Assembly (NCBI GenBank): GCA_023399095.1
Contig: JAEWQS010000189.1
Coordinates: 16,243 to 80,242, forward strand
Source of the DNA: Bacillota bacterium
GTDB taxonomy: Bacteria; Bacillota; Clostridia; Christensenellales; SZUA-584
Length of the DNA stretch: 64,000 nt
Direction: 5' to 3'
In this document: in pieces, positions 8,793 through 46,276 of the stretch
Layout: each line of letters begins with the position of its first letter
Numbering within the stretch: position 1 is the first letter of the stretch
Made by a program: the position numbers and the translations under genes
Notes under the pieces: model-generated
Databases searched by the model: none
What the model saw: the letters and a program-made list of their open reading frames with translations, nothing else
Told to the model about the DNA's origin: nothing

Positions 8793-8846
8793 TTGGATGC
8801 TCAAAAGCCTTAAGACTTATTGGGGTGTAAAATCAGGAGGTTAAGA

Positions 8847-10693: not shown

Positions 10694-11742
10694 CGAAAAA
10701 ATATGACATGATGGGTTTCGGTGAGGCGATGATACGTTTCAATGCCCCCGAGCATATGAGGCTCGAGCAGTCGAGCTCTCTGCAGCTTGCGATAGCTGCG
10801 GCAGAGCTTAATTGCTGCGTGAATATATCCAGACTGGGTCTTAAAACGGCGTATATAACCAAGCTCGTGGACACGTGGAGCGGAAAATATATCATCAACC
10901 ACGGCAGGGAACACGGCGTTGACATGTCCGGTGTGAAAACGGTGCCATTCGACGGCTGCGGAAAGACGAGAAACGGCTTTTGCTTCCTCGAGGTGGGCAT
11001 AGGCCCGAGGGCGAGCAGACAAATATACGACCGTGGTCACAGTGCGATAAGCAAGGTGGAGCAGGGCGATTTCGACTGGGACGAGATACTGAAGGACACA
11101 AGGTGGTTCCATACCACCGGCATAACGACGGCTATATCTCAAGGAGCTGCGGAGCAGGCAATAGCGTCGCTTAAAGCAGCGAAAAGACTGGGGCTTACGA
11201 CGAGCTTCGATCTTAACTTCCGCTCTACGCTGTGGACGAGCGAACAGGCGCAGGCTACCATGAAGAGTGTGATGCCGTATGTTGACGTCATCATAGGCAA
11301 CGAGGAAGATTTCGAGAAGATGCTCGGCATAAAGGCTGAGGGCACGGGCGAGCACTACGCGAAGATAGACCCTGAAAGCTACAGGGCTGTCGCTGAGAAG
11401 GTGGTCAAGGCATACCCGAACGTCGTCGCGGTTGGGACGACGTTGAGGGAAGTCAAGACTGCGCTGCTAAACGACTGGCGCACGGTCATGATGTACAAGG
11501 GCGGATATTACGTATCGCGCAAGTACGAGAACCTTGAGATAACGGATAGGACGGGTGGAGGAGACAGTTTCGCGTCGTCTATGATGTGGGGCATGCTCGA
11601 GGGCAAAGACCCGCAGTATATCGTTGATTTCTCGGCTGCATACTCCGCGCTGTGCCATACGTTCCTCGGAGACTGGAACTGGGCTTATAAGGAAGAAGCC
11701 GAGAGCGTTATGCGAGGCGAGAGCGCAAGGGTGAAAAGGTAA
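10690..11742 (+). CDS. PfkB-family sugar(-acid) kinase, 2-dehydro-3-deoxygluconokinase-like
   Basis: 350 aa with an N-terminal GEAMIRF and the PfkB signature DRTGGGDSFASS near the C-terminus. Confidence 0.75.
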   Translation: MTKKYDMMGFGEAMIRFNAPEHMRLEQSSSLQLAIAAAELNCCVNISRLGLKTAYITKLVDTWSGKYIINHGREHGVDMSGVKTVPFDGCGKTRNGFCFLEVGIGPRASRQIYDRGHSAISKVEQGDFDWDEILKDTRWFHTTGITTAISQGAAEQAIASLKAAKRLGLTTSFDLNFRSTLWTSEQAQATMKSVMPYVDVIIGNEEDFEKMLGIKAEGTGEHYAKIDPESYRAVAEKVVKAYPNVVAVGTTLREVKTALLNDWRTVMMYKGGYYVSRKYENLEITDRTGGGDSFASSMMWGMLEGKDPQYIVDFSAAYSALCHTFLGDWNWAYKEEAESVMRGESARVKR

Positions 11743-11834
11743 GACTATTATCACATTATATAGCGATAGGGAGATTGGATAAGATATATATAAACACCTC
11801 TTTTTATGTTGGCTGTCCAAAGATTCAATCAAAC

Positions 11835-11863
11835 GTGGCGAAAAACATTGTATTTTTCGCCAC
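11835..11863 (+). terminator. Rho-independent-type terminator after the PfkB operon
   Basis: Perfect 11-bp stem gtggcgaaaaa / tttttcgccac with a 7-nt loop, followed by A/T-rich sequence. Confidence 0.55.
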
Positions 11864-12193: not shown

Positions 12194-12227
12194 AAGCAGT
12201 GAAGATATATTCAAAGGATGAAAAGCT

Positions 12228-13214
12228 TTGGGAAATATGATGGAAAACGCGACGATAAGCGAGATAAATACAATAATACGCATAGCGAAGAAGTACTACG
12301 AGCTTAATTTGTCTCAAGAACAGATAGCTGCGGAGGAAGAGACGTCTATATCCACGGTATCGCGTATTATTAAAAAGGCTGTGACGCTTGGATATGTTAA
12401 GCATGAAATAATATATCCGGTAAGGTCTCTTGCGCTTCAGGAAGAGCTGCTGAAAAAGCACTTCGATATCGAGCACATTTTCATCACGCCGTGTTTTGTG
12501 AATGACGTCAGCATATGCATGACGGATACTTGCAAGATGGTTGCCGAAGATCTAAGCAAGATAGTATCAGACAATGATATCGTCAGCGTTTCGTGGGGCA
12601 GGACGATGGAGCACTTATCGTCACTTCTCGTGCCGCCCGCAACCACGAAAAAAGGGATAACAATCGTGCAGCTCAACGGCTCTATTGCCACCAGCGTATT
12701 GTCAACAAAGACTGCGGGTCTGCTCGAAAAGTTTACGCAGGCATATGCGGGTGTGGGGTATATAATAGCCGCGCCGGCTCTCGTAGACGATGAAAAGATT
12801 GCAAACGAAATAAAGCGGGATTCGCGTATCAAGCTGGTGCTTGAGCTGGCAAGGGAGGCGAATATCGCCGTTTTCAGCATAGGGCAGACGTCTGAGAATT
12901 CGGTGCTGGTCGAGCGCTCGACAGTCACAGAGGAAAATATTAAGGCACTGCGCGAAGCCGGCGCTGTCGGCGATATATGCACAAGGTTTTTTGACATAAG
13001 CGGAGATCTCGTAGACAATGGATATAACGCGAGGACGATCGGCATTGAGCTTCACGAGCTTAAGAAAAAGAAGCACAGGATAGGGATAGCGGTCGGGGCA
13101 GAGAAAGCCGACGCCATAATCGGAGCGCTAAGAGGCGGGTATATGACGACTTTGTATACGGATGAGATAACCGCCCTTAATATTTTAAAACGGTGCGAAG
13201 AGTATAATTTATAA
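12228..13214 (+). CDS. SorC/DeoR(Bsu)/CggR-family sugar-phosphate-sensing transcriptional regulator
   Basis: N-terminal HTH (LSQEQIAAEEETSISTVSRIIKKA) and a C-terminal sugar-binding domain (VSVSWGRT, VQLNGS). The start may be ATG 12237/12240 rather than TTG 12228. It lies 33 nt upstream of DERA-1. Confidence 0.8.
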   Translation: MGNMMENATISEINTIIRIAKKYYELNLSQEQIAAEEETSISTVSRIIKKAVTLGYVKHEIIYPVRSLALQEELLKKHFDIEHIFITPCFVNDVSICMTDTCKMVAEDLSKIVSDNDIVSVSWGRTMEHLSSLLVPPATTKKGITIVQLNGSIATSVLSTKTAGLLEKFTQAYAGVGYIIAAPALVDDEKIANEIKRDSRIKLVLELAREANIAVFSIGQTSENSVLVERSTVTEENIKALREAGAVGDICTRFFDISGDLVDNGYNARTIGIELHELKKKKHRIGIAVGAEKADAIIGALRGGYMTTLYTDEITALNILKRCEEYNL

Positions 13215-13247
13215 ACAAAATGATAAAACAATTCGGAGGGAGATTTT

Positions 13248-14078
13248 ATGGACATAAACGAACTGATCAAGAAAGTAACTGAAGAAGTCTGTGCGCAGCT
13301 TAATGGCAAGCCGCAAACGTCACCGGCGGCAGCAAACGAATTTGCGCCCGCATCGCTGGCTAAGTACGTTGACCACACTCTTTTAAAGCCTGAGGCATCC
13401 GAAGCGGATGTGAGAAAGGTCTGTGACGAGGCTAAGAAGTATAACTTCGCGAGCGTATGCGTAAACCCGAACCACATCAAATTTGTGGCAGAACAGCTTT
13501 CGGGCAGCGGAGTGGCACCCTGTGTCGTCATCGGCTTCCCGCTCGGCGCAACGACGCCTGAAGTTAAGGCGGAAGAGACTCAGGCCGTATTGCTGATGGG
13601 CGCAAAAGAAGTGGATATGGTCGTGAATATAGGCGCGATCAAATCGGACAACTGGCAGCTTGTTAAAAGGGACATCGAAGCTGTGGTGACAGCGGCAAAG
13701 GGCAGAGGGCTCGTCAAGGTCATCATTGAGACATGCCTGCTGACAGACGAGGAGAAGGTAAAGGTCTGCGCTATAGCGAAGATGGTGGGCGCGGATTTTG
13801 TAAAGACTTCTACCGGTTTCTCAAAGGGCGGAGCTACAAAAGAAGACGTCGCTCTGATGCGCCAGACTGTAGGCCCTCATATGGGAGTTAAGGCATCGGG
13901 AGGCGTTCGCGATTACGAAACTGCAGTTGCGATGATAAAGGCGGGCGCGACAAGGCTGGGAACAAGCTCGGGCGTGACTATCGTATCGGGCGGCGGCAAG
14001 GCTTGCGTAAACTGCGGACAGTGCGCATCGGGCAATTGCCCGGCTGGCAATGTAGCGGTAATTAAAGACACATACTAA
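13248..14078 (+). CDS. deoC: Deoxyribose-phosphate aldolase (DERA-1) with an N-terminal encapsulation-peptide-like helix and a C-terminal Cys-rich tail
   Basis: The core is canonical: [65 protein letters not shown]. The extra N-terminus is [18 protein letters not shown] plus a PA-rich linker. The extra C-terminus is [13 protein letters not shown]. Confidence 0.9.
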
Positions 14079-14103
14079 TTGAATGTAATTTAAGGAGTTT
14101 AAT

Positions 14104-15162
14104 ATGAGCAGCATGATGAAGGCAGTAAGGATGTACGCACCCAGGGATCTGAGGTTAGAGCAGGTTCCCGTTCCCGAGATCAAGGAGAACGAGGTACTGA
14201 TTAAGGTTATGGCCGTAGGCGTATGCGGATCGGACATTCCGCGCATCAACCAGTATGGCGCATATATAGCGCCCATAACTCCGGGTCATGAGTTTGCGGG
14301 CGAGATTGTCAAGACCGGCGCTGATGTTAAGAGCTATAAGGACGGCGATCGCGTTACGGTAGCGCCGCTGATGCCTTGCTTTAAGTGCGAGTATTGCCAG
14401 CAGGGGCACTTCTCGCTGTGCGTAGACTACAACTATTTCGGCTCGCGCTGCGACGGTGCTTTCGCCCAGTACCTTGCCGTTCCCGAGATCAATCTTGTCA
14501 AGATAGCCGACAACGTGACATATGAGGCTGCGGCGACGACAGATCCCCTTGCGAACGCGCTGCACTCTATCAAGCGCGGCGGTTTTAAAGCTGGCGACAA
14601 GGTATGCGTAGTGGGAACAGGACCTATCGGGCTTTATGCGCTTCAGTACATGAAAGCGAAGGGCGCTGCCAAGGTGGTCGCGGTAGACGTTTCGGAAGAA
14701 AAGCGCAAGGTCGCTCTCAATTGCGGAGCGGATGTGGCAATAGACGGAACTGCCGAGGACGTCGTCGAGCAGATAATTAAAGCAACGGACGGCGGAGCGG
14801 ATCTTTGTATAGACGCTTCCGGATTTCCTCCGGCACAGCACAACGCGATAATGGCGACCGGCAAGCACGGCAGGATGGTATTCCTCGGGATATCGCACAA
14901 GCCGTTGGAGCTGTCTGAAAAGTGTGTCGATCAGATAATGAGGTTTGAGAAGCAGGTAATAGGATCGTGGAATTCGTTCTCGAAGCCGTTCCCAGGATGG
15001 GAATGGACGCATGGAGTGGAAAGCCTCGCGGATGGAACGATAGACGCCGAGAAGATAATCACGCACAAGCTTCGTCTTGAAGACGTGCCGGGCATATTTG
15101 ACAAAATATATAAGAAGGAACTGTTCTTTAACAAGATACTGTTTCTGCCCTGGGCGGAATAA
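14104..15162 (+). CDS. Zn-dependent MDR dehydrogenase, galactitol-1-phosphate 5-dehydrogenase (GatD)-like
   Basis: GVCGSDIPRI...PITPGHEFAGE, PLMPCFKCEYCQQGHFSLC, YFGSRCDGAFAQY, VVGTGPIGL. The pattern matches sugar-alcohol(-phosphate) dehydrogenases. Confidence 0.75.
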   Translation: MSSMMKAVRMYAPRDLRLEQVPVPEIKENEVLIKVMAVGVCGSDIPRINQYGAYIAPITPGHEFAGEIVKTGADVKSYKDGDRVTVAPLMPCFKCEYCQQGHFSLCVDYNYFGSRCDGAFAQYLAVPEINLVKIADNVTYEAAATTDPLANALHSIKRGGFKAGDKVCVVGTGPIGLYALQYMKAKGAAKVVAVDVSEEKRKVALNCGADVAIDGTAEDVVEQIIKATDGGADLCIDASGFPPAQHNAIMATGKHGRMVFLGISHKPLELSEKCVDQIMRFEKQVIGSWNSFSKPFPGWEWTHGVESLADGTIDAEKIITHKLRLEDVPGIFDKIYKKELFFNKILFLPWAE

Positions 15163-15180
15163 ACGGACATAGGAGGGAAA

Positions 15181-16212
15181 ATGAAAGCATTCGTATATCA
15201 CGGAGAAAAGAACTTCTCTATCGATCAGATAGAAAAACCTGTGGCCGAGGCGGGTGAAGCGGTTGCAAAGGTTTTGTGTGCTTCGATATGCGGCACTGAC
15301 CTTCGCACATACAGGTTTGGCAGCGCCAAACTGAAGACGCCAGTAACTATAGGCCACGAAGGATGTTATGAGATTGTAGAAGTCGGCGAAGGCACGGGCT
15401 TAACCGTGGGAGAACGGTATACAATGGCGCCTGCCATAGGCTGCGGAGAGTGCAAAAACTGCAAAAGAGAGCGCACAAATATGTGCTTGAGCCTTGAGAC
15501 TATCGGCTTCCAGTTTGCGGGTACGTTCTCGGAATACATCAAAATACCTAAAAAGGCTATAGAGCGGGGGCATCTCATTAAGGTGCCGGAGGGCATATCG
15601 GTGGAGGCCGCGAGCGTCGCCGAACCGATCGCATGCGCTATAAACGCGCAAAGCTTCTTGAATATAGAGAGGGGCGACAACGTACTCATATACGGCGCGG
15701 GATACCTCGGATGCATACACGCAGAGCTGGCCTTTATGAAGGGCGCGGGCAAGGTCATTATAGGAGAGGTTTCCGAGAAGCGGCGCGTCAGCGCAGGCAG
15801 GCTCGTACCTAAGGCCCACATCGTCGATACGAAAGACGCGGGTTACGTGGAGCTTATAAAGAACATCGTAGGCACAGACGGAGTGGACGTTGTTATAACG
15901 GCATGCCCCGCAGGAATAACGCATAAGCAGGGCCTCGAGCTATTGAGTAACAACGGTCGTATAAGTCTGTTTGGAGGGCTTCCGGGCGACAACAATTTTC
16001 ATATCGACAGCAACCTTATTCACTATAAGGAACTCGGTGTGTTCGGGGCGCATGCTTCGACCGTCAAGCAGAACAAGGAAGCGCTCGAGCTGATAGCAAC
16101 TGGTAAGCTTGAAGTTGAAAAGTACATCACCAAGTTTGCTTTCGATGACATAGTAAAGGCGTTTGAGAGCCTTATAAGCGAGGACGCCGAGAAGGCGGTC
16201 GTCATTCCGTAA
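15181..16212 (+). CDS. Zn-dependent MDR dehydrogenase (sorbitol/threonine dehydrogenase-like)
   Basis: ICGTDLR, IGHEG, the structural-Zn Cys cluster GCGECKNCKRERTNMC, and GAGYLG. Confidence 0.8.
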   Translation: MKAFVYHGEKNFSIDQIEKPVAEAGEAVAKVLCASICGTDLRTYRFGSAKLKTPVTIGHEGCYEIVEVGEGTGLTVGERYTMAPAIGCGECKNCKRERTNMCLSLETIGFQFAGTFSEYIKIPKKAIERGHLIKVPEGISVEAASVAEPIACAINAQSFLNIERGDNVLIYGAGYLGCIHAELAFMKGAGKVIIGEVSEKRRVSAGRLVPKAHIVDTKDAGYVELIKNIVGTDGVDVVITACPAGITHKQGLELLSNNGRISLFGGLPGDNNFHIDSNLIHYKELGVFGAHASTVKQNKEALELIATGKLEVEKYITKFAFDDIVKAFESLISEDAEKAVVIP

Positions 16213-16267
16213 TACGGAATGCAAGAGACGTAAATACGAATACAACAAATTTTAAAGGAGAATTAAA

Positions 16268-16540
16268 ATGGACAAACAGGCACTCGGAATGGTTGAAACA
16301 AAGGGTCTTATCGGCGCAATAGAAGCGGCTGATGCAATGGTAAAAGCGGCGAACGTGACGCTTATTGGCAAAGAGCAGATAGGCTCGGGGCTCGTAACGG
16401 TTATGGTGAGAGGCGATGTTGGAGCGGTAAAGGCGGCTGTTGATGCCGGTGCGGCTGCTGCAAAGCGCGTGGGAGAATTGGTATCTGTACACGTTATACC
16501 CCGCCCGCATCAGGATGTTGAAGGCATACTGCCCAGATAA
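16268..16540 (+). CDS. BMC-H hexameric shell protein (PduA/EutM type), copy 1
   Basis: [26 protein letters not shown]...[18 protein letters not shown]...VHVIPRPH is a single Pfam00936-type domain. Confidence 0.95.
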
Positions 16541-16557
16541 CTGTTTAAAACGGAGAG

Positions 16558-17199
16558 TTGAAGTTGAACGAGCAAACGCTTATACGTACGATCACATTAG
16601 CAACAGTAAAGCAATTCGCGCTGGCGGGGAAAGGTTTTTTCCCCGCAGCGGTATCGGCGCGCCATGTGCACCTTTGCGCGGCGGACATTGAGACGCTTTT
16701 CGGCAAAGGACATAAGCTTGTTAAACTGCGGGACCTTATGCAGCCCGGACAATTTGCGTGCGAAGAGCAGGTGACTCTGGTCGGTAAAAAAGGGCGGATC
16801 GAGAAAATTCGCGTTCTGGGGCCGGCAAGACGCGAGACGCAGGTAGAGATATCGGTAACGGACTGCTATAAGGCAGGCATCGAGCCTGTGGTGCGCATGT
16901 CGGGTGATCTTGACAACACTCCCGGAGGCAAGCTTATAGGCCCGGCGGGAGAAGTCGATCTATCAAAAGGCGTCATCGTATCCGCAAGGCATCTGCATGC
17001 GACGGCGGAGCAGGCAGCGTGGTATGGACTTAAAAACGGTGATATTATAGCCGTAAAGAAAACGGGCGTCAGGGAAACGGTGTTTGGCAATATCGTTGTG
17101 CGCACAGGGAAGGAACACGACCTTGAGCTGCATTTTGATCCCGATGAAGCAAACGCGGCAGGACTAAAATCGGGCGATATGCTGGAGCTGGTGAAATGA
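16558..17199 (+). CDS. pduL: Phosphate acyltransferase PduL
   Basis: Two PduL repeats (AVSARHVHL and VSARHLHAT). The N-terminal amphipathic segment NEQTLIRTITLATVKQFA looks like an encapsulation peptide. TTG 16564 (6 nt after ggagag) may be the real start. Confidence 0.85.
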   Translation: MKLNEQTLIRTITLATVKQFALAGKGFFPAAVSARHVHLCAADIETLFGKGHKLVKLRDLMQPGQFACEEQVTLVGKKGRIEKIRVLGPARRETQVEISVTDCYKAGIEPVVRMSGDLDNTPGGKLIGPAGEVDLSKGVIVSARHLHATAEQAAWYGLKNGDIIAVKKTGVRETVFGNIVVRTGKEHDLELHFDPDEANAAGLKSGDMLELVK

Positions 17200-17209
17200 G
17201 AGGCGGAAA

Positions 17210-17863
17210 ATGAACTATAGCGCGCAAGACATACAGGAACTAATACGGCGCGTCACAGAAGAGATATTAAGCGGACAGACGCAGATGCAAAGCGGCAGTT
17301 TGGCCGTGCTCTGCGGCATCGTTTTCGACCCGCAGGGCGTGAGAGAGTTCTTAGCGGATAAAAACGTCACATATGCGCTGCCAGACGATATGCCGCCTCT
17401 TGTTGAGGGCTGCAAGGCGCTGAAGCTTGAGGCGGACAAACGCGAGATACTTGAAGGGCTGGCAGATTTTGAAGAGGTCGTGCTCGTCACGCCGCCGCTG
17501 TCGCTTCTGGCCGCAATTGCGGCAGCCGACGATACGTCTTTGACTGCGTCACTTATCATCAGGCCTCTGCTCTGGGGCAAGGCTGTGACCGTGCTGCTCG
17601 ACTTTGAAACGCCCAAGTACATGCGGGGCACAGCGCTTGCGGTTATAGCGGACAACATAAATGCGCTCGAAAAGATGGGTGTCATTGTGAAAACGCTGGC
17701 GCGCAAAAACATCAAGAAACAGGGCAAAGCGCTTGTAACCGAACAGGATGTCAAGGACGCGTACAAGGACGGCAGCATGAAGGTGAAGATGGAGCCGGGA
17801 GCAATAGTCACGCAGCTCGCGCAGGATACAGCAAAAGAGTGCGGCGTGAGCATCGAATATTAG
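17210..17863 (+). CDS. BMC-associated protein of unknown function with an encapsulation-peptide-like N-terminus (possibly PduM-like)
   Basis: 217 aa. The N-terminus is MNYSAQDIQELIRRVTEEIL followed by a Q/S/G linker. No catalytic motif recognised. It sits between pduL and a BMC-P gene. Confidence 0.55.
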   Translation: MNYSAQDIQELIRRVTEEILSGQTQMQSGSLAVLCGIVFDPQGVREFLADKNVTYALPDDMPPLVEGCKALKLEADKREILEGLADFEEVVLVTPPLSLLAAIAAADDTSLTASLIIRPLLWGKAVTVLLDFETPKYMRGTALAVIADNINALEKMGVIVKTLARKNIKKQGKALVTEQDVKDAYKDGSMKVKMEPGAIVTQLAQDTAKECGVSIEY

Positions 17864-17873
17864 GAGATATGAT

Positions 17874-18194
17874 ATGCAGATAGCAAGAGTAAAGGGAAGC
17901 GTTGTCAGCACTAACAAAGCCGAAAAGCTGCATGGCTTAAAGCTGCTGATCGTCGTTCCCATAGAACTCGCTACATTTGAAGAAAAAGGGTCACCGATAG
18001 TCGCTATTGACACCGTGGGCGCGGGAGCGGGAGAGGTCGTCATGCTGTGCGGCGGAAGCTCGTCGCGGCAGACGGTGCTGACTGAGAATAAACCGTCGGA
18101 TATGGCTATCGTCGCCATAATTGACTCTATAGAGATAGAAGGAAAAACAGTATTCCGCAAGTTTGAAGAATCGGATCGGGGTGAGGACAAATGA
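17874..18194 (+). CDS. BMC-P pentameric vertex protein (EutN/CcmL/PduN type), copy 1
   Basis: MQIARVKGSVVSTNK...LKLLIV...AIDTVGAGAGEVV pattern of Pfam03319. 106 aa with an acidic C-terminal tail. Confidence 0.9.
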   Translation: MQIARVKGSVVSTNKAEKLHGLKLLIVVPIELATFEEKGSPIVAIDTVGAGAGEVVMLCGGSSSRQTVLTENKPSDMAIVAIIDSIEIEGKTVFRKFEESDRGEDK

Positions 18195-19603
18195 GTTTAA
18201 CAGAGCAACAAGTTCGCCAGATCGTTGAAGATACAATGAAAAATATAGCAGGCGCTCCGGTAACGGCCGCGGCAGCAGGCGGGAGCTGGCTCTGCGACAC
18301 CATGGAAGAAGCGATCGCTTCAGCCAAAGCTGCTCAACAGCAGCTCATAGCGATGCCGCTCGATAAACGCGGCAAGCTGATAGACGCTATGCGCCGCGCA
18401 GCGATGGAAAACGTACAGTATCTGTCGGAGCTCGCGCATAACGAGACAGGTTACGGAAAAACGGAGCACAAGGTTTTAAAGAATAAACTGGCGATAGAAA
18501 AAACGCCGGGTATCGAAGACCTGACCGCGGACGCCATGTCGGGGGACTATGGACTCACGCTGGTTGAGCGCGCGCCTTTCGGAGTTATCGGCGCGATAAC
18601 GCCGTCTACCAACCCGACATCTACGGTAATAAATAATTCGATAAGCATGATAGCGGCGGGTAACGCCGTGGTGTATAACCCGCACCCGGCAGCCAAGAAA
18701 AGCTCTACTGAAACAATGCGGATACTTAATGAAGCAATCGTTTCGGCAGGCGGGCCTGCCACGCTTATATGTACCGTAAAACAGCCGACATTGGAAAGCG
18801 GCAAGGCGCTGATGGAGCATAAGGACATACCGTTGCTCGCCATAACGGGAGGCGAAGCCGTCGTGCATGTGGCAATGCACACTGGCAAAAAAGTCATAGC
18901 GGCAGGGCCGGGAAATCCGCCTGTCATTGTGGACGACACCGCAATAATAAAGCAGGCAGCAAAGGACATAGTGGACGGCGCAAGCTTTGACAACAACGTT
19001 CTATGCATAGCGGAAAAAGAGGTGTTCGTATTCGGAAGCGTGGCCGATATGCTCATGAACGAGATGCAAAAGCACGGCGCAATTAAAGTATCGGGCACGG
19101 AGATCGACAAAATAGTCAAAACCGTTTTTGTGCAGAAGGACGGCAAATATGTCGTTAACAGGAAATACGTTGGCAAGGATGCGACGAAGATACTTTCGGA
19201 CAGCGGCGTTTCCTACACCGGGAACCCGAGGCTCGTTTTTGCGGACGTAGATGAAAACCACCCGTTCGTAACGGTGGAGATGCTGATGCCGGTGCTCGGT
19301 ATCGTGCGCGTTCAAAACGACGAGATCGTCACCGCGATACAGATGGCCATAAAAGCGGAGAACGGCTGCAAGCACACGGCTATGATGCATTCTCAGAACG
19401 TCAGCCATCTTTCGATGGCGGCCAAAGCGATGAATACGACCATATTCGTTAAAAACGCGCCCTCTTACGCAGGGCTCGGTTTCGGCGGAGAAGGTTTCAC
19501 GACATTGACGATAGCGACTCCTACGGGAGAGGGACTGACGAGCGCCAGAACGTTTACGCGTGTGCGCAGATGCGTTCTGTACGGGAACTTCAGGATCGTA
19601 TAA
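18191..19603 (+). CDS. CoA-acylating aldehyde dehydrogenase (PduP/EutE type) with an N-terminal encapsulation peptide
   Basis: MSLTEQQVRQIVEDTMKNI plus an Ala/Gly linker. The catalytic Cys context is GASFDNNVLCIAEKE, and the C-terminus is PduP-like. The start overlaps the BMC-P stop. Confidence 0.9.
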   Translation: MSLTEQQVRQIVEDTMKNIAGAPVTAAAAGGSWLCDTMEEAIASAKAAQQQLIAMPLDKRGKLIDAMRRAAMENVQYLSELAHNETGYGKTEHKVLKNKLAIEKTPGIEDLTADAMSGDYGLTLVERAPFGVIGAITPSTNPTSTVINNSISMIAAGNAVVYNPHPAAKKSSTETMRILNEAIVSAGGPATLICTVKQPTLESGKALMEHKDIPLLAITGGEAVVHVAMHTGKKVIAAGPGNPPVIVDDTAIIKQAAKDIVDGASFDNNVLCIAEKEVFVFGSVADMLMNEMQKHGAIKVSGTEIDKIVKTVFVQKDGKYVVNRKYVGKDATKILSDSGVSYTGNPRLVFADVDENHPFVTVEMLMPVLGIVRVQNDEIVTAIQMAIKAENGCKHTAMMHSQNVSHLSMAAKAMNTTIFVKNAPSYAGLGFGGEGFTTLTIATPTGEGLTSARTFTRVRRCVLYGNFRIV

Positions 19604-20923
19604 ATGGATAAGCAGCAGATTTTAAACAAAATCAAAGAGGCGGGAGTGATAGGCGCTGGCGGCGCTGGTTTTCCCACACATATCAAACTGTCGTGCAGCG
19701 CCGACGTTGTTATAGCAAACGGCGCTGAGTGTGAACCGCTGCTGCGCACCGACCGGCTGCTCATGGAAACATACCCTGAGAAGGTCGTTGCGGGGATCAA
19801 GGCTGCTATGTACGTAACGGGCGCGAAGCGGGGCGTTATTGCGCTCAAGAAAAAGTATGTAAAAGCCGTAGAAGCAATGAGAGGCGCGCTGGATTCCAGT
19901 ATGGAACTGTATCTTATGGACAGTTTCTATCCGGCGGGTGATGAGCAGCAGATCGTGTATGAGGTGACGGGTAAGGTCGTTCCCACGGGAGGGCTTCCCA
20001 TAGATGTGGGGGCCATGGTACAGAATGTCGCCACGCTGATAGCCATCGCGGAAGCGCTGCAGGAAACGCCCGTTATAGAAAAGTACGTGACAGTCGCGGG
20101 CGAGGTATCAAACCCTATGGTGTACAAAGCGCCCATAGGAATGCCGCTTACGAAATTGATTGCGGCGGCGGGAGGCTCGAAAGACGATTCGGAATACAGC
20201 GTAATCATCGGCGGCCCTATGATGGGGCGCGTATCGGAGGATATTACAGCTGAAGTCGTGGAGAAAACGACAGGCGGCATAATCGTGATGCCAAAAGGCC
20301 ACACGCTGATACGCCAGAAGACCCGCGACCTTGTGCAGGATATAAGGCTCGCCAAATCGGTTTGCTGCCAGTGCAACTACTGCACACAACTCTGCCCGCG
20401 CAACGCTCTGGGGCTCAAGGTGGAGCCCCACAAGATAATGCGCGCACTTGCTCTTAACGCCGACAACTTCGGCGAGGTGAACGGCATATTCTCATGCAGC
20501 AACTGCGGCGTATGTACTCAGTACGCGTGCAACTTCCAGCTAGCACCCTCAAGACTTATGACCAGGGTCAAGCAGGAGCTCGCAAAAGCGGGAGTGAAGC
20601 CTGAGAAGAAAGTGGCGTTCAGCGTGGCGGATAACATGGAAAGCATAAAGGTGCCAGTGTCAAGGCTGATGATACGGCTTGGTATCGTACCATACGACAG
20701 GGATCTGCAATTAAAAGACGAAACGGTGGATACAGATTATGTCCGGCTGCCGCTGAAGATGCATATAGGAGCGCCTGCCGTCCCAATAGTAAAAACAGGC
20801 GATAAAGCCATTGCGGGGCAAATGATAGCCTCGGTGGACAACGGCGTGGGTGCAAACTTGCACGCAAGCATAACGGGAATTGCGATGGTAACGGACAAGT
20901 ATATTGAGATAAGGAAGCAGTAA
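19604..20923 (+). CDS. PduS/RnfC-like NAD(P)H-flavin Fe-S oxidoreductase
   Basis: GAGGAGFPTHIKL nucleotide/FMN region and two ferredoxin-type motifs (CCQCNYCTQLCP, CSNCGVCTQYAC). No rnfDGEAB neighbours. Confidence 0.8.
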   Translation: MDKQQILNKIKEAGVIGAGGAGFPTHIKLSCSADVVIANGAECEPLLRTDRLLMETYPEKVVAGIKAAMYVTGAKRGVIALKKKYVKAVEAMRGALDSSMELYLMDSFYPAGDEQQIVYEVTGKVVPTGGLPIDVGAMVQNVATLIAIAEALQETPVIEKYVTVAGEVSNPMVYKAPIGMPLTKLIAAAGGSKDDSEYSVIIGGPMMGRVSEDITAEVVEKTTGGIIVMPKGHTLIRQKTRDLVQDIRLAKSVCCQCNYCTQLCPRNALGLKVEPHKIMRALALNADNFGEVNGIFSCSNCGVCTQYACNFQLAPSRLMTRVKQELAKAGVKPEKKVAFSVADNMESIKVPVSRLMIRLGIVPYDRDLQLKDETVDTDYVRLPLKMHIGAPAVPIVKTGDKAIAGQMIASVDNGVGANLHASITGIAMVTDKYIEIRKQ

Positions 20924-20925
20924 AT

Positions 20926-21474
20926 ATGACACACGCAGTGGGAATGGTCGAAACAAACTGCATAGCAAAAGGCATTGAGGCCGCAGACGCGATGCTCAAG
21001 GCGGCTGATGTGACCCTTCTGTCGGCGCAGACAGCCTGCGCGGGCAAATACGTCGTAATCGTATCGGGCGACGTGGCGGCAGCAAAAGCCTCGGTGGAAG
21101 CGGGGGCGGCCGGAGCAGAGGAGACGCTCGTAGACAGCATGGTGATACCCAATATTGACGAGCAGGTCTTGAAAGCTGTATCGGCATGCGGCGAGCCTCA
21201 TAACTTTGAGGCGCTCGGGATTATCGAGACGTTCTCGCTCGTGTCGGCACTGCTGTGCGCGGACGTTGCGGTAAAGGCGGCGGACATTGAGCTGATAGAG
21301 GTAAGGCTGGGCAGAGGCCTGGGCGGCAAGTCGTTCCTGACGCTGACGGGAGACGTTGCGGCGGTGCGCCACGCGATAGAAGCGGCGAAATCGGACGAAG
21401 GGGTTAAGGGCATGATAACGCGCACTGTGGTTATACCCTCTCCGCATCCTGACCTTAAGAGGTCAGTCTATTAA
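20926..21474 (+). CDS. BMC-T tandem-domain shell protein, PduT-like
   Basis: Two Pfam00936-type repeats in 182 aa. Cys38 sits in the TACAGKY context, the same position as the PduT pore [4Fe-4S] ligand. Confidence 0.85.
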   Translation: MTHAVGMVETNCIAKGIEAADAMLKAADVTLLSAQTACAGKYVVIVSGDVAAAKASVEAGAAGAEETLVDSMVIPNIDEQVLKAVSACGEPHNFEALGIIETFSLVSALLCADVAVKAADIELIEVRLGRGLGGKSFLTLTGDVAAVRHAIEAAKSDEGVKGMITRTVVIPSPHPDLKRSVY

Positions 21475-21549
21475 GTGAGAAGATGGGCATAAGCTCTTCT
21501 GATAAAGCCTAAAAAAATATAGTTTTTATATGACAAAAGGAGCAAAGCA

Positions 21550-21855
21550 ATGGAAAAACAAGCATTGGGAATGGTAGAGACAAAAGGTCTTGTCGGCGCT
21601 ATAGAAGCGGCTGACGCGATGGTAAAAGCGGCTAACGTCACACTAATCGGTAAAGAGCAGATAGGATCGGGACTCGTGACCGTCATGGTAAGAGGCGATG
21701 TGGGTGCTGTCAAGGCGTCTGTTGATTCGGGCGCGGCAGCGGCAAAGCGCGTGGGCGAGCTTGTTTCGGTACACGTTATTCCGCGTCCGCACGACGATGT
21801 AGAAGGCATACTGCCTGCAGTGAAACCCGCAAAAGCGGCGGCGAAGAAGGAATAG
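21550..21855 (+). CDS. BMC-H shell protein, copy 2 (Lys/Ala-rich C-terminal tail)
   Basis: Almost identical in protein sequence to copy 1 over about 85 aa. Extra tail [12 protein letters not shown]. Confidence 0.95.
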
Positions 21856-21856
21856 C

Positions 21857-22120
21857 ATGTACACCGGGAAGGTCATAGGCTCGGTCGTCAGCACGGCAAA
21901 GGACCCGAGCCTTAAAGGCGTCAAGCTGCTCGTGGTGCAAAAGTACGAAAACGGCAAACCTGCAGGGCTGATAGTGTCGGCGGACGGGACTCGTCAGGCG
22001 GGGCCGGGGGATTTTGTGTACCTGATTGGCAGCAAGGAAGCATGCCTGCCGTTTCCGGAATGCAGGTTGATACCTTTGGACTCATCGATCATAGGGTTTA
22101 TTGACCGTATCAACGAATAA
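21857..22120 (+). CDS. BMC-P vertex protein, copy 2
   Basis: [27 protein letters not shown]...GPGDFV is an EutN/CcmL-type fold signature. Confidence 0.85.
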
Positions 22121-22140
22121 TCAAAAGGGGGATTTGTAAA

Positions 22141-22416
22141 ATGGAAAAACAAGCACTCGGAATGGTTGAGACAAAAGGGCTCGTGGGCGCGATTGAGGCG
22201 GCTGATGCGATGGTTAAAGCGGCGAATGTCACGCTCGTAGGCAAAGAGAAGATAGGCAGCGGACTCGTGACCGTGATGGTGCGCGGAGATGTTGGTGCTG
22301 TTAAAGCGGCGGTGGATTCAGGCGCGGCGGCTGCAAAGCGCGTTGGTGAGCTCGTATCGGTACATGTGATACCGCGTCCGCACGACGACGTCGAAGCCAT
22401 ACTGCCAGGAAAATAG
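22141..22416 (+). CDS. BMC-H shell protein, copy 3
   Basis: Same domain as copies 1 and 2. The DNA differs mostly at synonymous positions. Confidence 0.95.
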
Positions 22417-22417
22417 T

Positions 22418-22687
22418 ATGCTGCTTGCAAAGGTAGTCGGCAATGTGGTGTCGACGATAAAGCCCGAGTCGCATCACGGGCGCAAGCTCATGATGGTTGA
22501 ACTTATTGGGCTTGATAATAAACCATACGGCACGCGGCAGATAGTCATAGACGCTGCCAACGCCGGAATTGGCGATACCGTGCTTGTCAATGTGGACGGC
22601 GGCGCGTCGCTTATGATACTTGACGACAAGAAAGCTCTCGTCGATATGACGATATGCGGCGTTGTCGACCATTTTGACGTAGAATGA
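22418..22687 (+). CDS. BMC-P vertex protein, copy 3
   Basis: MLLAKVVGNVVSTIKPESHHGRKLMMV...ANAGIGDTVLV is EutN/CcmL-type. Confidence 0.85.
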   Translation: MLLAKVVGNVVSTIKPESHHGRKLMMVELIGLDNKPYGTRQIVIDAANAGIGDTVLVNVDGGASLMILDDKKALVDMTICGVVDHFDVE

Positions 22688-22703
22688 AAGGCGGGGGACT
22701 GCA

Positions 22704-23432
22704 TTGGATATACAGGATATCGTGGCAAAGGTCACGAAAGAAATATTAGCACGGATGGGAGAGAGCGTTCCCGTAGAATCGGGAACGGATATCGCTCATA
22801 CTATAGAACACAGCCTTTTAAACCCAGACATGACGAAGGATCAGATAATAAAGGGGTGCAAAGATGCAAAGGCATTTCGCATGGCCAATATATGCGTATC
22901 GCCCTATTATGTAGCGCTCGCCGCGGAGTATCTGCGCGGCAGCGGAGTTAAGGTTTGTGCTCCTGTGGCGTTTCCGCATGGCGCATCTTCTACGGCGGCA
23001 AAGATAGTAGAAGCAAGGGAAGCCATCAAAAACGGTGCGGAAGAGCTTGACGTTTCTATAAACATTCTCGCTATAAAGAGCGGAGAAATAAAGGACGCGC
23101 TCTATGACTTGTGCGAGGTAGTGAACGTAGCCAAGGGCAAAGCTCTCGTTAAAGCAATCTATGAGCAGGGACTTTACACCGACGATGAGAAGGTTGCTGC
23201 ACTTAATGTCGCCAAACAGTCGGGCGCTGATTTCATTAAGATATCGAACGCTCTTACAGGCAAGAAGGCGTTGGCTGAGGACGTACATTTCGTACGCAGC
23301 ATAGTGGGAAACACAATAGGCATAAAAATAGACGGCGGAATCGCCACCGCGGCGAAGGTTCGCGAGCTGATGGCGGCGGGCGCTCAGCGTTTTGGGTGCA
23401 GCAAGTCGGTCGAGATAGTACAGGGACAGTAA
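22704..23432 (+). CDS. Divergent DeoC/DERA-family aldolase paralog (DERA-2) with an encapsulation-peptide-like N-terminus
   Basis: TTG start behind aaaggcggggga. N-terminus MDIQDIVAKVTKEILARM plus linker. Both Lys contexts are kept (FIKIS, GIKIDGG), but KTSTGF becomes KISNAL and VKASGGVR becomes IKIDGGIA. Confidence 0.75.
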   Translation: MDIQDIVAKVTKEILARMGESVPVESGTDIAHTIEHSLLNPDMTKDQIIKGCKDAKAFRMANICVSPYYVALAAEYLRGSGVKVCAPVAFPHGASSTAAKIVEAREAIKNGAEELDVSINILAIKSGEIKDALYDLCEVVNVAKGKALVKAIYEQGLYTDDEKVAALNVAKQSGADFIKISNALTGKKALAEDVHFVRSIVGNTIGIKIDGGIATAAKVRELMAAGAQRFGCSKSVEIVQGQ

Positions 23433-23460
23433 GGATAAACAATCATATCATTTCAAATTA

Positions 23461-23495
23461 AAAATACACGGGTGCGAGATGCTTCCGTGTATTTT
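23461..23495. terminator. Bidirectional rho-independent terminator between the BMC operon and the convergent LacI gene
   Basis: Perfect 11-bp stem aaaatacacgg / ccgtgtatttt, with T-runs on both strands. Confidence 0.75.
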
Positions 23496-23533
23496 TCTAT
23501 TTTGGGTATTCGATTATCTGTGAAATAGTAAAG

Positions 23534-24601
23534 TTAAATACTATTCGCTGTGTTTGCTCTCGGGAGTGAGGCTACGCTTTTGCGTACCTTTATATCGGTT
23601 GAGATAGCGATGCGGAATACACCGCAGTGATCCGATGCGGGACCATGTGTCCCTTCCAGTATCCTTTGATGCAGCAGATCCATCGCCTTGCTGCCCATCA
23701 ATACTTTCATAACCTTGATCGTGGTCAGCGGTGGGCTGATCATCTCGCAGGCGGGCATGTCGTCAAACCCGATGATGGAGACATCATCCGGAATCTTGTA
23801 TTCAAAACGGTTAAAGGCGCGTATGGCACCGAAGGCAATCACATCCGAATCAGCAAAGAAGGCGGTCGGGAGATCTCGGTTATCTTTCAGCCAAAGGCAA
23901 ACATCATGATACGCCTTCTCGGAAGAGAAATCCACCGGCACGACTTGAAGCGTGGCTTCGGGATGATCCGCCATGGCGCGATGAACGCCTTCGCTCCGTT
24001 CGTCAAAGTTCAATATGCGCTGGATAGAGCTGAGATAGCCGATTTTGGTATGACCCTGGTTGATCATATACTCTATTGCTTTATATGCACCGCGTAGGTT
24101 ATCGGTAAACACACAGTCGATTTCAGAATGAAATGTTTTAGTGTCGACAATGACAATAGGAACTTCCGGATGCTGTCTGACAATGGGATGTTCCAATAAG
24201 CCGGATGATTCATCCAACTCTGTTCCGAGCAGAATAATGCCTGCTGTATTCTGAAAAATAGCATTGAGCTGATCTGTTTCGTCTTGGCTGCTATAAAAAT
24301 AGCTGAGTAAGACGTTATAGCCCAATTTTTTAGCTCTGGCTTCAATACCCTGCAGCACAATGGAGTGGAAAGAAATTTCGTTAACAACAAGCCCCTCGCC
24401 GACATAAATCACATAGCGTATATTGCGGGTAACCGAGGGCTGATTGTGTCGCTGGGGGACTGCATAATCATATTTTGCGGCTGTATTGATAATCAATTCG
24501 CGTGTGGCATCACCGACGCCAGGTTTGCCGTTAAGCGCAAGTGAAACGGCTGACGGTGAAACGTTCAGCATTTCAGCAATTTCTTTGGCAGTTATACTCA
24601 C
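23534..24601 (-). CDS. LacI/GalR-family transcriptional regulator
   Basis: GTG start behind aggagg. HTH is KEIAEMLNVSPSAVSLALNGKPGV, with IIGFDDM in the sugar-binding core. Confidence 0.85.
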   Translation of the reverse strand: MSITAKEIAEMLNVSPSAVSLALNGKPGVGDATRELIINTAAKYDYAVPQRHNQPSVTRNIRYVIYVGEGLVVNEISFHSIVLQGIEARAKKLGYNVLLSYFYSSQDETDQLNAIFQNTAGIILLGTELDESSGLLEHPIVRQHPEVPIVIVDTKTFHSEIDCVFTDNLRGAYKAIEYMINQGHTKIGYLSSIQRILNFDERSEGVHRAMADHPEATLQVVPVDFSSEKAYHDVCLWLKDNRDLPTAFFADSDVIAFGAIRAFNRFEYKIPDDVSIIGFDDMPACEMISPPLTTIKVMKVLMGSKAMDLLHQRILEGTHGPASDHCGVFRIAISTDIKVRKSVASLPRANTANSI

Positions 24602-24677
24602 TTGGTTGCCTCCTCGTATTATTGGCCTAAATCCAGTATAACAAAATATTATTATAAATCAATAAGGAATTTAGTTT

Positions 24678-24689
24678 TTTAGTACTAAA
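24678..24689. promoter_or_regulatory. Candidate LacI-family operator (perfect 12-bp palindrome tttagtactaaa inside a cluster of TTTAG/CTAAA repeats)
   Basis: Seen in the divergent region between the LacI gene and the ABC operon. Related half-sites aatttagt / actaaatt / aaatttagtaaatt recur between about 24669 and 24714. Confidence 0.3.
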
Positions 24690-24813
24690 TTATTTACACC
24701 AAATTTAGTAAATTGTTGAACAAAACACCGATATTTAGCAAGATATTTATAAAAGCATATAGTTTGCAGCAAATAAATGCGATTAATTCATTATTAAGGA
24801 GCTAAATATCCTA

Positions 24814-24842
24814 TTGACATTAACGAAATAATGGGCTAGAAT
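24814..24842 (+). promoter_or_regulatory. Candidate sigma-A promoter (ttgaca, 17 nt, tagaat)
   Basis: Near-consensus hexamers with 17-nt spacing. This implies a leader of about 375 nt before the ABC ATPase start at 25219. Confidence 0.45.
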
Positions 24843-25218
24843 TTAACTACAGATTGAGAGACTTGAGCTAAACAATTGAGTTTCTACAAGTAAACCATTA
24901 TATGTGCCTGATAAGGAGATAGAGGAGCGTGCAGACAGCGAGACGCAACCGGGATCCGAATCGACATGATTAGCATCACAGAATTTCGGTAAATAATAGA
25001 AGTGCAAACGCATGCATTGGAGCATGACGTTGGCAAAGGAAATTGACTTTCCGGGTGGTTACGGAAAGGCGGGGGATTCTTTTGGTTGTATAGATGTGCA
25101 AAACATCTAATGTGTATACGATTGGATGCTATGCCAATGAAGTTCAAAAGGATATCCTGCATTAAGTCATATAAGAACTGACAAGCTGCATGCGATTGCT
25201 ATACGGAAGGAGTGCGAT

Positions 25219-27709: not shown

Positions 27710-27722
27710 TTGGAAAGGGAAG

Positions 27723-28781: not shown

Positions 28782-28888
28782 ATTCTAAGCACACTGTTGA
28801 GCGGATACCGCCTCTGTCTGCAGCAGGAAGGCTTGTCAAATGACGGGCCAGCGACAGTCGTGTATCCATGACTATGAATGATTTACGC

Positions 28889-28919
28889 CGAGGGGACCGG
28901 CTAACCCCTGTCCCCTCGG
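28889..28919 (+). terminator. Stable hairpin downstream of the binding-protein gene (possible terminator or processing site)
   Basis: 10-bp GC-rich stem ccgaggggac / gtcccctcgg. No T-tract follows. Confidence 0.35.
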
Positions 28920-28975
28920 TATAATCGACATCTATAACAAAAATACTAGAGTGAATTCTATAATTATTTGAGGAA

Positions 28976-44792: not shown

Positions 44793-44811
44793 AAGAAAAG
44801 GAGAAAAACTC

Positions 44812-46272: not shown

Positions 46273-46276
46273 GCAT

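Follow-up and report, generated by a model that had tools for sequence, protein, structure and literature searches.

What does a bacterial microcompartment (BMC) process when a deoxyribose-phosphate aldolase (DERA) stands in place of a canonical signature enzyme, and is such an organelle of a new type? The question is raised by a 64,000-nucleotide stretch of a Bacillota genome (GenBank assembly GCA_023399095.1, contig JAEWQS010000189.1, positions 16,243 to 80,242 of the forward strand; this whole stretch is called the window), in which positions 12228-23432 carry 16 genes on the + strand, separated by gaps of -4 to 75 bp. An initial annotation, made from the sequence alone, had proposed a DERA-centred metabolosome resembling the sugar-phosphate-utilisation (SPU) class. 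The analysis presented here supports that proposal: the locus is a complete SPU4-like metabolosome operon, a further member of a catalogued class. We consider it likely that its core chemistry runs from deoxyribose-5-phosphate to glyceraldehyde-3-phosphate plus acetaldehyde, and from acetaldehyde through acetyl-CoA to acetyl-phosphate. The locus itself is an ordinary SPU4-like member from an uncultured Bacillota bacterium, and its interest lies in the comparison of about 40 related loci.

An SPU4-like metabolosome operon

Open reading frame (ORF) calling, over the 9-27 kb listing, returned exactly the 16 co-directional, closely packed genes of the initial annotation in the same order, and Pfam and NCBIfam profiles placed each of them in the family to which it had been assigned, apart from a 217-aa protein that has no Pfam match. 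The strong bidirectional terminator proposed for the operon end was borne out both by direct reading and by folding: a 13-bp, A/T-flanked hairpin at 23460-23497 (AAAAATACACGG...CCGTGTATTTTT), shared with a convergent LacI gene, has a dG of -19.8 kcal/mol (z -5.3), and none of 200 shuffled sequences was as stable. A consensus terminator scan overlooked this intrinsic terminator, the loop of which exceeds 8 nt. The upstream operon ends at another terminator (11835-11863), which sets it apart from the BMC locus.

Homologous loci were collected from one genome per GTDB species, with ORFs labelled by means of the window proteins, which yielded 79 loci. The identical 16-gene order was found in six contigs of metagenome-assembled genomes (MAGs; loci L003-L007 and L013), and the block phosphotransacylase (PTAC)/unknown/BMC-P/aldehyde dehydrogenase (AldDH)/PduS/BMC-T/H/P/H/P/DERA-2 is present, whole or mostly, in about ten further loci. 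A core block extends to about 40 loci of Christensenellales, Oscillospiraceae, Lachnospiraceae and Synergistales. With six public MAG contigs repeating the order and dozens more repeating the core block, the arrangement is not due to chance. The closest loci belong to uncultured Bacillota MAGs (91-96% identity in DERA-1), and the exact DERA-1 protein is encoded on the 85-kb metagenomic scaffold ENA ERZ28599896. Next in similarity are loci from Christensenellales, Oscillospiraceae, Lachnospiraceae (among them Dorea sp. D27 and Lachnospiraceae bacterium CE91-St61, the genome of which is complete) and one member of the Synergistales. A variant order in Lachnospiraceae reads MDR/MDR/TPI/unknown/AldDH/PduS/T/H/H/DERA/(RpiB)/P/P/P/Pta, where TPI is triosephosphate isomerase.

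The SPU class was defined in 2014 from loci combining DeoC, RpiB and AldDH with shell proteins (PMC4207490), and a 2021 catalogue held more than 280 loci from 26 phyla in seven subtypes (PMC8217296); the earlier description of this locus as an uncharacterised organelle type does not hold. Dorea sp. D27 and Anaerotruncus colihominis have been named as SPU4 carriers (PMC8156839). Dwyer, Sutter and Kerfeld, who curated 206 SPU loci in 2024, reported DERA and AldDH in all published SPU loci, N-terminal extensions on all SPU DERAs, encapsulation peptides (EPs) on AldDH and PTAC, a BMC-P triplet throughout the class, PTAC in SPU1/4/7, PduS in every subtype except SPU6, and the absence of BMC-Tdp from SPU1/4/7 (PMC11585597).

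The window agrees with this published SPU1/4/7 pattern. Its PF00936 and PF03319 genes are clustered, its DeoC proteins are extended and carry the catalytic D/K/K residues, its acylating AldDH bears an EP, and the BMC-P triplet is complete; PTAC, PduS and BMC-Ts are present and BMC-Tdp is absent, the sole tandem-domain shell protein being PduT-like. Homology to the SPU4 locus of Dorea sp. D27 runs through the whole of it, with identities of 61% for DERA, 56% for AldDH, 49% for PduS, 50% for BMC-T, 88-91% for BMC-H and 42-43% for MDR. The locus belongs to the SPU class and, with this homology taken as a proxy for shell-HMM colour typing, would stand closest to SPU4.

No canonical signature enzyme was found just outside the operon or elsewhere in the 64 kb: when the listed ORFs with a length of 150 aa or more (excepting shadow and overlapping frames) were searched with Pfam, neither a glycyl-radical enzyme nor its activase was returned, and neither EutBC nor PduCDE. 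An 803-aa ORF at 54091-56502 was considered as a glycyl-radical enzyme and rejected, as it encodes a GH3 glycosidase. Rfam gave no match at gathering threshold in the whole window, and so no riboswitch.

Predicted core chemistry and electron route

The enzyme set fits the core chemistry that had been proposed, and this is the best-supported model, although two dehydrogenases of the operon (MDR1 and MDR2) do not fit the scheme. A 2-deoxy sugar phosphate, most probably 2-deoxy-D-ribose-5-phosphate, would enter the shell, where DERA-1 would split deoxyribose-5-phosphate to give glyceraldehyde-3-phosphate together with acetaldehyde. The acylating AldDH would trap acetaldehyde as acetyl-CoA with the yield of NADH, and PduL would regenerate CoA and release acetyl-phosphate for ATP synthesis. 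Without an encapsulated alcohol dehydrogenase, NAD+ would be recycled by a PduS-like flavoprotein, from whose two Fe-S clusters electrons may pass to a cluster site at Cys38 in the BMC-T pore and so to the outside of the shell. A SorC/DeoR-like repressor probably senses a sugar phosphate, and MDR1 and MDR2, which are without targeting peptides, are probably cytosolic and would act on a feeder or a product.

DERA-1 (13248-14078; PF01791) scores 279.6 bits against TIGR00126 (cut-off 117.3) and 299 bits against the PDB DERA 8qps. When roughly 110 DERA ORFs of these loci were aligned to E. coli DeoC, DERA-1 proved to retain D102, K167 and K201 as well as the KTSTGF/KASGGVR pocket (E. coli numbering; in the DeoC reference used, the three catalytic residues fall at their published numbers). 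The CoA-acylating AldDH (18191-19603; PF00171) reaches 648 bits against NF011927, for which the cut-off is 403, and the PduL-type PTAC (16558-17199) reaches 234 bits against PF06130 and 241 against NF011652 (cut-off 209). No PF00465 alcohol dehydrogenase is present.

The PduS-like protein (19604-20923) is of the NADH-oxidising, Fe-S flavoprotein MNdh type. It comprises a PF01512 NADH/FMN domain, SLBB, Fer4_17 (PF13534) and a C-terminal RnfC_N, and the motifs CxxCxxCxxxCP and CxxCxxCxxxxC can be read in its translation. It matches RnfC structures with the RnfC barrel domain permuted to the C-terminus, and it has no N-terminal extension, the ORF being maximal and the domain beginning at the N-terminus. 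The PduT-like tandem BMC-T (20926-21474; PF00936 twice) has Cys38 at the pore position, where it aligns with the CPGK cysteine of PduT 3pac and of 3nwg; it matches the position that ligates a 4Fe-4S cluster in PduT and marks a putative cluster site. An electron-export model for MNdh and BMC-Ts has been described (PMC11585597 and PMC12747264), and the PduS/PduT pair, as assigned from these matches, appears to fit it. The pair would supply a route for NAD+ recycling that was absent from the initial annotation.

Shell proteins

Three BMC-H, one BMC-T and three BMC-P genes (PF00936 and PF03319) lie within 7 kb. The hexameric BMC-H 1 (16268-16540; PF00936, 105.5 bits) is 92-94% identical to BMC-H 2 (21550-21855; 103 bits) and BMC-H 3 (22141-22416; 105.5 bits). 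The pentameric vertex proteins BMC-P 1 (17874-18194; PF03319, 98.6 bits), BMC-P 2 (21857-22120; 62 bits) and BMC-P 3 (22418-22687; 71 bits) are mutually 32-38% identical, and BMC-P 3 completes the BMC-P triplet typical of SPU loci. BMC-H 2 ends in a short Lys/Ala-rich tail (21820-21855), and BMC-P 1 bears at its C-terminus an acidic extension some 20 residues long (18140-18194), which is missing from the other two BMC-P proteins.

Encapsulation peptides

EPs had been proposed on five proteins. They are supported by AlphaFold2 models for DERA-1 and the 217-aa protein and by sequence features for DERA-2 and AldDH, and PduL is the weakest case. The DERA-1 model, built from a 50-sequence alignment, has a helix at residues 3-19 and a linker at 20-29 with pLDDT below 50, followed by the barrel; in the 217-aa protein a helix at residues 5-21 is followed by a low-confidence linker. 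The hydrophobic moment of the N-terminal helix lies between the 97th and 100th percentiles for DERA-1, DERA-2, the 217-aa protein and AldDH (98.7th for AldDH). In DERA-2 and AldDH, 29-36 residues precede the catalytic domain, the PF00171 domain of AldDH beginning at residue 37, and the DERA extensions of 36 and 29 residues compare with 5-8 in the shortest housekeeping Clostridium DERAs. PduL has a 30-residue N-terminal extension (PF06130 begins at residue 31) with a hydrophobic moment at the 74th percentile.

The motif DI[NQ][ED][LI][IV]xxVT[EK]E[VI] is common to the N-termini of DERA-1, DERA-2 and the 217-aa protein, which suggests a common binding partner. MDR1 and MDR2 have no EP, as their ORFs are maximal and their domains begin at the N-terminus; in MDR1 this leaves no room for an N-terminal extension.

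The 217-aa BMC-associated conserved protein (17210-17863) has 47 homologues, none with a function or a Pfam match and the few named ones called hypothetical. NCBIfam gives a weak match (32 bits) to TIGR02536, a hypothetical family associated with ethanolamine utilisation (EUT). AlphaFold2 (pLDDT 83.8) models a Rossmann-like core with a small C-terminal domain that carries an invariant AIVTxLA motif. The core resembles HFCD/UbiX flavoproteins, and the top Foldseek matches are EpiD and UbiX (E 4e-5, TM 0.44-0.55, 10-16% identity). A flavin-binding or scaffolding role would be a guess.

A ferredoxin-type cysteine motif in DERA-1

Class A, the group of DERAs to which DERA-1 belongs, is intermixed with housekeeping Firmicute DERAs in a neighbour-joining (NJ) tree (mean identity 69%), and it is distinguished by a C-terminal tail of 35-43 residues with the consensus C-x2-C-G-x-C-x3-6-C-P-[ST]-G ... 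K-x-x-Y. In DERA-1 the motif CX2CX2CX4CP occupies residues 253-265 (nt 14004-14042), and the tail ends in the terminal Tyr Y276 (to nt 14075). Across 50 database homologues that are 65-94% identical, the four cysteines, Gly257, Pro265 and Y276 do not vary. Among the best 120 database matches, the cysteine motif is found in 113 and the C-terminal Tyr in 118.

Several homologues carry precomputed PF00037 or PF12838 matches, and the tails of homologues 65-79% identical to DERA-1, with x3 spacing, pass the PF00037 threshold (24.3, 22.9 and 25.2 against 21.1 bits). The tail of DERA-1 itself, with x4 spacing, falls below the Pfam threshold (Fer4_10, 17 bits); the same x4 spacing occurs in the second motif of the PduS-like protein. 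In the AlphaFold2 model the tail has a pLDDT of 47-59 and is uninformative on cluster geometry.

In the E. coli enzyme the C-terminal Tyr259 reportedly reaches into the active site (PMC8403123). As a speculation, an insert that binds a cluster and stands just before the C-terminal Tyr could gate DERA-1 activity. The main text of the 2024 SPU study makes no mention of a Cys-rich DERA tail or of a second DERA class (PMC11585597), and the ferredoxin-type motif is a new detail, absent from the SPU papers examined.

Regulator, feeder genes and the identity of the substrate

Several observations weigh against an SPU4-like organelle fed with deoxyribose-5-phosphate, and they concern missing partners, the regulator and the accessory genes. 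A TPI with an EP is prominent in SPU1 and SPU4; none is present in the window, against 22 of the related loci fetched. [quoted passage not shown] A search of the window for RpiB (PF02502), with the E. coli protein as query, gave no homologue at E <1e-4, and the same search found one in 14 related loci. The 2021 catalogue called RpiB common to all SPU subtypes (PMC8217296), and the 2024 count was RPI in 18 of 29 SPU4 loci and in no SPU5 locus (PMC11585597). Since RpiB is not universal in SPU4, its absence does not exclude membership. Nor do the Pfam searches of the 64 kb, which took in ORFs from 150 aa upwards, give deoB, pdp/deoA, deoD, nupC or deoK, the feeders for deoxynucleosides or deoxyribose. 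The statement of the initial annotation that neither substrate nor chemistry had been shown in any such organelle is outdated, because an SPU6 DERA without its extension forms a dimer that is active on deoxyribose-5-phosphate in vitro and binds an RPI inactive on ribose-5-phosphate (PMC11585597), and because work posted as a preprint in 2025 reconstituted SPU shells of archaea and showed that cargo recruitment depends on the EP (PMC12747264). It stands for bacteria in vivo, as no demonstration of a native SPU organelle or of its substrate was found in the literature searched.

The SorC-family (DeoR-like) regulator is encoded by gene 1 (12228-13214; PF04198, 208.9 bits), the true start of which is probably the ATG at 12237 or 12240. 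A parallel had been drawn with B. subtilis DeoR, and it stands in part. The protein is of the SorC family, its best NCBIfam match is DeoR NF053881 and its best PDB match is B. subtilis DeoR 8r7y (171 bits), but the NF053881 score of 250 bits is below the equivalog cut-off of 420. Moreover, QLKGG of DeoR, the lysine of which we take to be the Schiff-base residue K141, aligns with QLNGS here, so that the presumed lysine position is occupied by Asn. The position is N, C, S or I in all BMC-linked relatives of the regulator, and it is also Asn in a Clostridium regulator beside a housekeeping deoC. Because the lysine is absent there too, it does not discriminate between the two settings, and it was dropped as a test of the effector. 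Covalent binding of deoxyribose-5-phosphate by B. subtilis DeoR has been described (PMC11229326).

The DeoR operator TTGAA-N6-TTCAA was also tried and rejected. One DeoR-like half-site with a single mismatch is present at 12199-12214 (GTGAAGATATATTCAA), between a weak promoter match (putative -10) and the regulator start codon; the window holds 10 such sites against 3.6 expected, and the site does not reach significance by itself. A comparison of the promoters of the BMC operon, the LacI/ABC cluster and an FGGY kinase for a shared operator gave no convincing common motif.

The accessory genes also bear on the substrate. Two polyol-dehydrogenase-like MDRs, superfluous in the deoxyribose-5-phosphate scheme, stand in the operon. 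MDR1 (14104-15162; PF08240 and PF00107), a Zn-MDR of the polyol(-phosphate) dehydrogenase type, is closest to the galactitol-1-phosphate 5-dehydrogenase GatD (NF007642, 257 against 550 bits; PDB 4a2c, 206 bits). MDR2 (15181-16212; PF08240 and PF00107), of the threonine/sorbitol dehydrogenase type, is Tdh-like at a score far below the equivalog cut-off and 25.5% identical to MDR1. An FGGY-family sugar kinase (30997-32526, + strand; XylB-like, below cut-off) lies outside the operon, 7.5 kb downstream, past a LacI-controlled CUT2 ABC transporter and a weakly AraA-like isomerase, and is possibly linked to the BMC operon in function.

These genes suggest another reading, to which we give a real but minor share of the probability: that the input is not, or not only, deoxyribose-5-phosphate derived from DNA. 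The cytosolic MDRs and the FGGY kinase would convert an imported sugar or sugar alcohol or dispose of the three-carbon product, DERA-2 would cleave a non-phosphorylated 2-deoxy- or 3-hydroxy-aldehyde (free 2-deoxyribose or 3-hydroxybutanal), and the chassis would be a general acetaldehyde-releasing retro-aldol organelle with interchangeable feeders. The MDR pair sits within the operon at gaps of 18-55 bp, and MDR genes recur, in positions that differ from case to case, beside the SPU loci of Lachnospiraceae, Christensenella and further clades. An orthologous FGGY kinase recurs with SPU loci as well. The kinase of the window is 75% identical to the one directly upstream of the MDR2-MDR1 pair in the Dorea sp. 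D27 SPU4 locus, which exceeds the 61% of DERA-1. The identity of the MDRs themselves between the window and Dorea is only 42-43%, which makes their orthology uncertain.

The accessory oxidoreductases are quite different in sister chassis, which were retrieved by way of homologues of DERA-2 and the 217-aa protein; this is a further point against the deoxyribose-5-phosphate scheme. In or beside its operon, L082 carries a pair of SDRs, a Gfo/Idh oxidoreductase, Rpe and a class II aldolase, and L083 has two OYE flavoenzymes; relative to the window, both keep 74-77% identity in AldDH and 59-64% in DERA-2. On this comparison of gene content, the SPU core is apparently a portable module with interchangeable feeders. 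The minimal chassis L085, however, has no accessory enzymes and so no accessory dehydrogenase, its sole additions being an MFS transporter and a GntR regulator. The accessory genes may also be mere neighbours in sugar-utilisation islands, the deoxyribose-5-phosphate pocket of DERA-1 is fully canonical, and we know of no pathway from a polyol or ketose to a 2-deoxy aldose.

A second class of DERA

DERA-2 (22704-23432; PF01791) scores 196 bits against TIGR00126 (cut-off 117.3) and is about 40% identical to PDB DERAs. It belongs to a class B that is monophyletic in the NJ tree (21 of 21 sequences), and identity between this class and the others is only 46-47%. Every class-B sequence examined, DERA-2 among them, keeps D102, K167 and K201. 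The class differs in D16E and T18S, in K-I-[SQ]-N-[AVM]-L after the Schiff-base Lys, in K-I-D-G-G after K201, in R207 (A, K or S) and in S238 (C or L, with S kept in one locus), and it is without the C-terminal tail and terminal Tyr. The DERA-2 pocket reads KISNAL and KIDGG. This residue signature is kept in at least 16 loci, and ISNAL is found in 104 of 120 database homologues.

The phosphate site of DERA consists of G171, K172, G205, S238 and S239, and in the E. coli enzyme mutations S238D and S239D and those at G171 and G204 favour non-phosphorylated substrates (review PMC8403123). Because its changes fall at or beside G171 and S238, and because a new acidic residue stands beside G204/G205, class B looks like a natural variant of these phosphate-preference mutants, which speaks for a broader input. 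DERA-2 is not a simple duplicate of DERA-1; it may act as a second aldolase, on a non-phosphorylated 3-hydroxy-aldehyde, or else serve DERA-1 as a structural partner.

That DERA-2 is not a working aldolase at all, and serves as a structural partner that nucleates or packages the cargo core, is improbable in our estimate. Such a role has been proposed for the inactive RPI of SPU6, which binds DERA and was put forward as a packaging factor (PMC11585597), and among 40 SPU-type loci class-B DERA and RpiB never co-occur (class B only in 16, RpiB only in 14, both in none, neither in 10). This split follows clade boundaries and is therefore suggestive only, as it may reflect phylogenetic inertia. The EP motif common to DERA-2, DERA-1 and the 217-aa protein would suit a structural role, as would the loss of the C-terminal tail and of the Tyr reported to reach the active site in E. 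coli (PMC8403123). Set against this are the catalytic Asp and both lysines, kept throughout class B, and the conservation of ISNAL in the homologues; altered pocket residues that are themselves conserved indicate selection on the binding site rather than decay.

A signature enzyme elsewhere in the genome, for instance a satellite EutABC module to which the DERAs would be accessory, is very improbable: satellite EUT modules are reported for HO, SPU3 and SPU6 genomes (PMC8217296) and the window covers only 64 kb of an 85-kb metagenomic contig, but two EP-bearing DERAs bracket the operon, DERA and AldDH are common to all published SPU loci (PMC11585597), and no such module was found in the window (Pfam, ORFs of at least 150 aa).

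Deoxyribose-5-phosphate cleavage by DERA-1 is the preferred core chemistry, and the features of the two DERAs can be joined in a wider proposal that we advance tentatively. SPU4-type organelles may encapsulate two mechanistically distinct aldolases. Class A would be a 4Fe-4S protein, with a cluster possibly shared across the DERA dimer, that links the formation of acetaldehyde with redox or oxygen status, or with the PduS/PduT conduit; class B, an old lineage, would cleave non-phosphorylated 3-hydroxy-aldehydes and replace RPI as the DERA partner. With recurrent MDR and FGGY feeders, the substrate would be broader than deoxyribose-5-phosphate derived from DNA.

The comparison shows two distinct EP-tagged DERA classes in one chassis. 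If the DERA-1 motif binds a cluster, the enzyme would be a class I aldolase linked to redox, and would offer a new point of control over an organelle that produces aldehyde. That class-B DERA and RpiB exclude each other may account for the inactive RPI, itself a puzzle, of other SPU subtypes, and the recurring MDR and FGGY genes suggest that the 'DNA scavenging' role assigned to SPU BMCs of gut Firmicutes may be incomplete. The points on DERA, MDR and FGGY are testable because there are cultured carriers of related loci, for example Dorea sp. D27 and Lachnospiraceae bacterium CE91-St61.

Neighbouring genes

Taken together, the genes of the window make up a sugar-utilisation island, in which several ABC transporters and a two-component system are encoded. 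Downstream of the BMC operon, positions 23534-30382 hold the convergent LacI-family regulator, the CUT2-type sugar ABC transporter (ATPase, permease and binding protein) and the weakly L-arabinose-isomerase-like gene; in the related MAG loci L003, L004, L006 and L007, ABC genes of a similar kind are found upstream of the BMC operon. A VOC-family/glyoxalase gene (30513-30902) forms with the FGGY kinase a unit of its own after a hairpin. Further downstream, a canonical araB/araA/araD-like cluster at 43200-46969 encodes an FGGY kinase, an L-arabinose isomerase and a class II aldolase/epimerase.

The upstream operon at 8820-11863, which encodes a DHDPS-like aldolase, a D-2-hydroxyacid dehydrogenase and a KDG-kinase-like PfkB protein, was considered as a feeder and rejected. 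It is probably unrelated, because it has its own terminator and none of its three genes appears in the MAG loci with the 16-gene order (L003-L007 and L013). A 445-aa protein encoded at 7455-8792 contains only a sub-threshold TAL_FSA stretch; its operon also encodes an aldo-keto reductase, a cupin, a non-acylating AldDH, an SDR and a flavin reductase.

Comparison with known systems

The deoR/dra-nupC-pdp region of B. subtilis has, like the window, a SorC-family repressor gene adjoining a DERA gene. It differs in that the window has no nupC or pdp and that its regulator matches DeoR below the equivalog cut-off.

Compared with the EUT2 loci of Firmicutes, the window lacks the EutABC lyase, B12 genes and a riboswitch, and its aldehyde would come from an aldolase. 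The conversion of acetaldehyde through acetyl-CoA to acetyl-phosphate is shared, as are a PduL-type PTAC, an EutE-like AldDH and a PduT-like shell protein, and the 217-aa protein weakly matches the EUT-associated TIGR02536. The gene order PduL/hypothetical/EutN is presumably also the same in EUT2.

The SPU-type loci of Hodarchaeales (PMC12747264) share with the window DERA, AldDH, PTAC, an MNdh (PduS-like), BMC-Ts with a Cys pore motif and a cargo-associated flavoprotein domain. This domain is fused to DERA in the archaea, whereas in the window a flavoprotein-like fold is found in a separate EP-bearing protein; citrate synthase and a BMC-P with a DNA-binding tail are further features of the archaeal loci.

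The SPU6 enzymes of Chloroflexi bacterium GWB2_54_36 (PMC11585597) are the only bacterial SPU enzymes characterised experimentally. As in the window, an N-terminally extended DERA with the D/K/K residues is paired with AldDH in a locus of shell genes. The SPU6 locus differs in a DERA extension of about 70 residues, in RPI, BMC-Tdp and a GntR regulator, and in having no PduS and usually no PTAC.

The closest counterparts are the SPU4 loci of Dorea sp. D27 and Anaerotruncus colihominis. The window differs from SPU4 in having neither TPI nor RpiB, with a divergent class-B DERA in the place of RpiB and a SorC regulator first in the operon, and from Dorea in particular in having PduL where that locus has a Pta-type PF01515 enzyme. 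It shares with SPU4 the EP-bearing DERA, the acylating AldDH, PduS, the PduT-like BMC-Ts, the BMC-P triplet and the absence of BMC-Tdp, and with the Dorea sp. D27 locus the MDR pair and an orthologous FGGY kinase.

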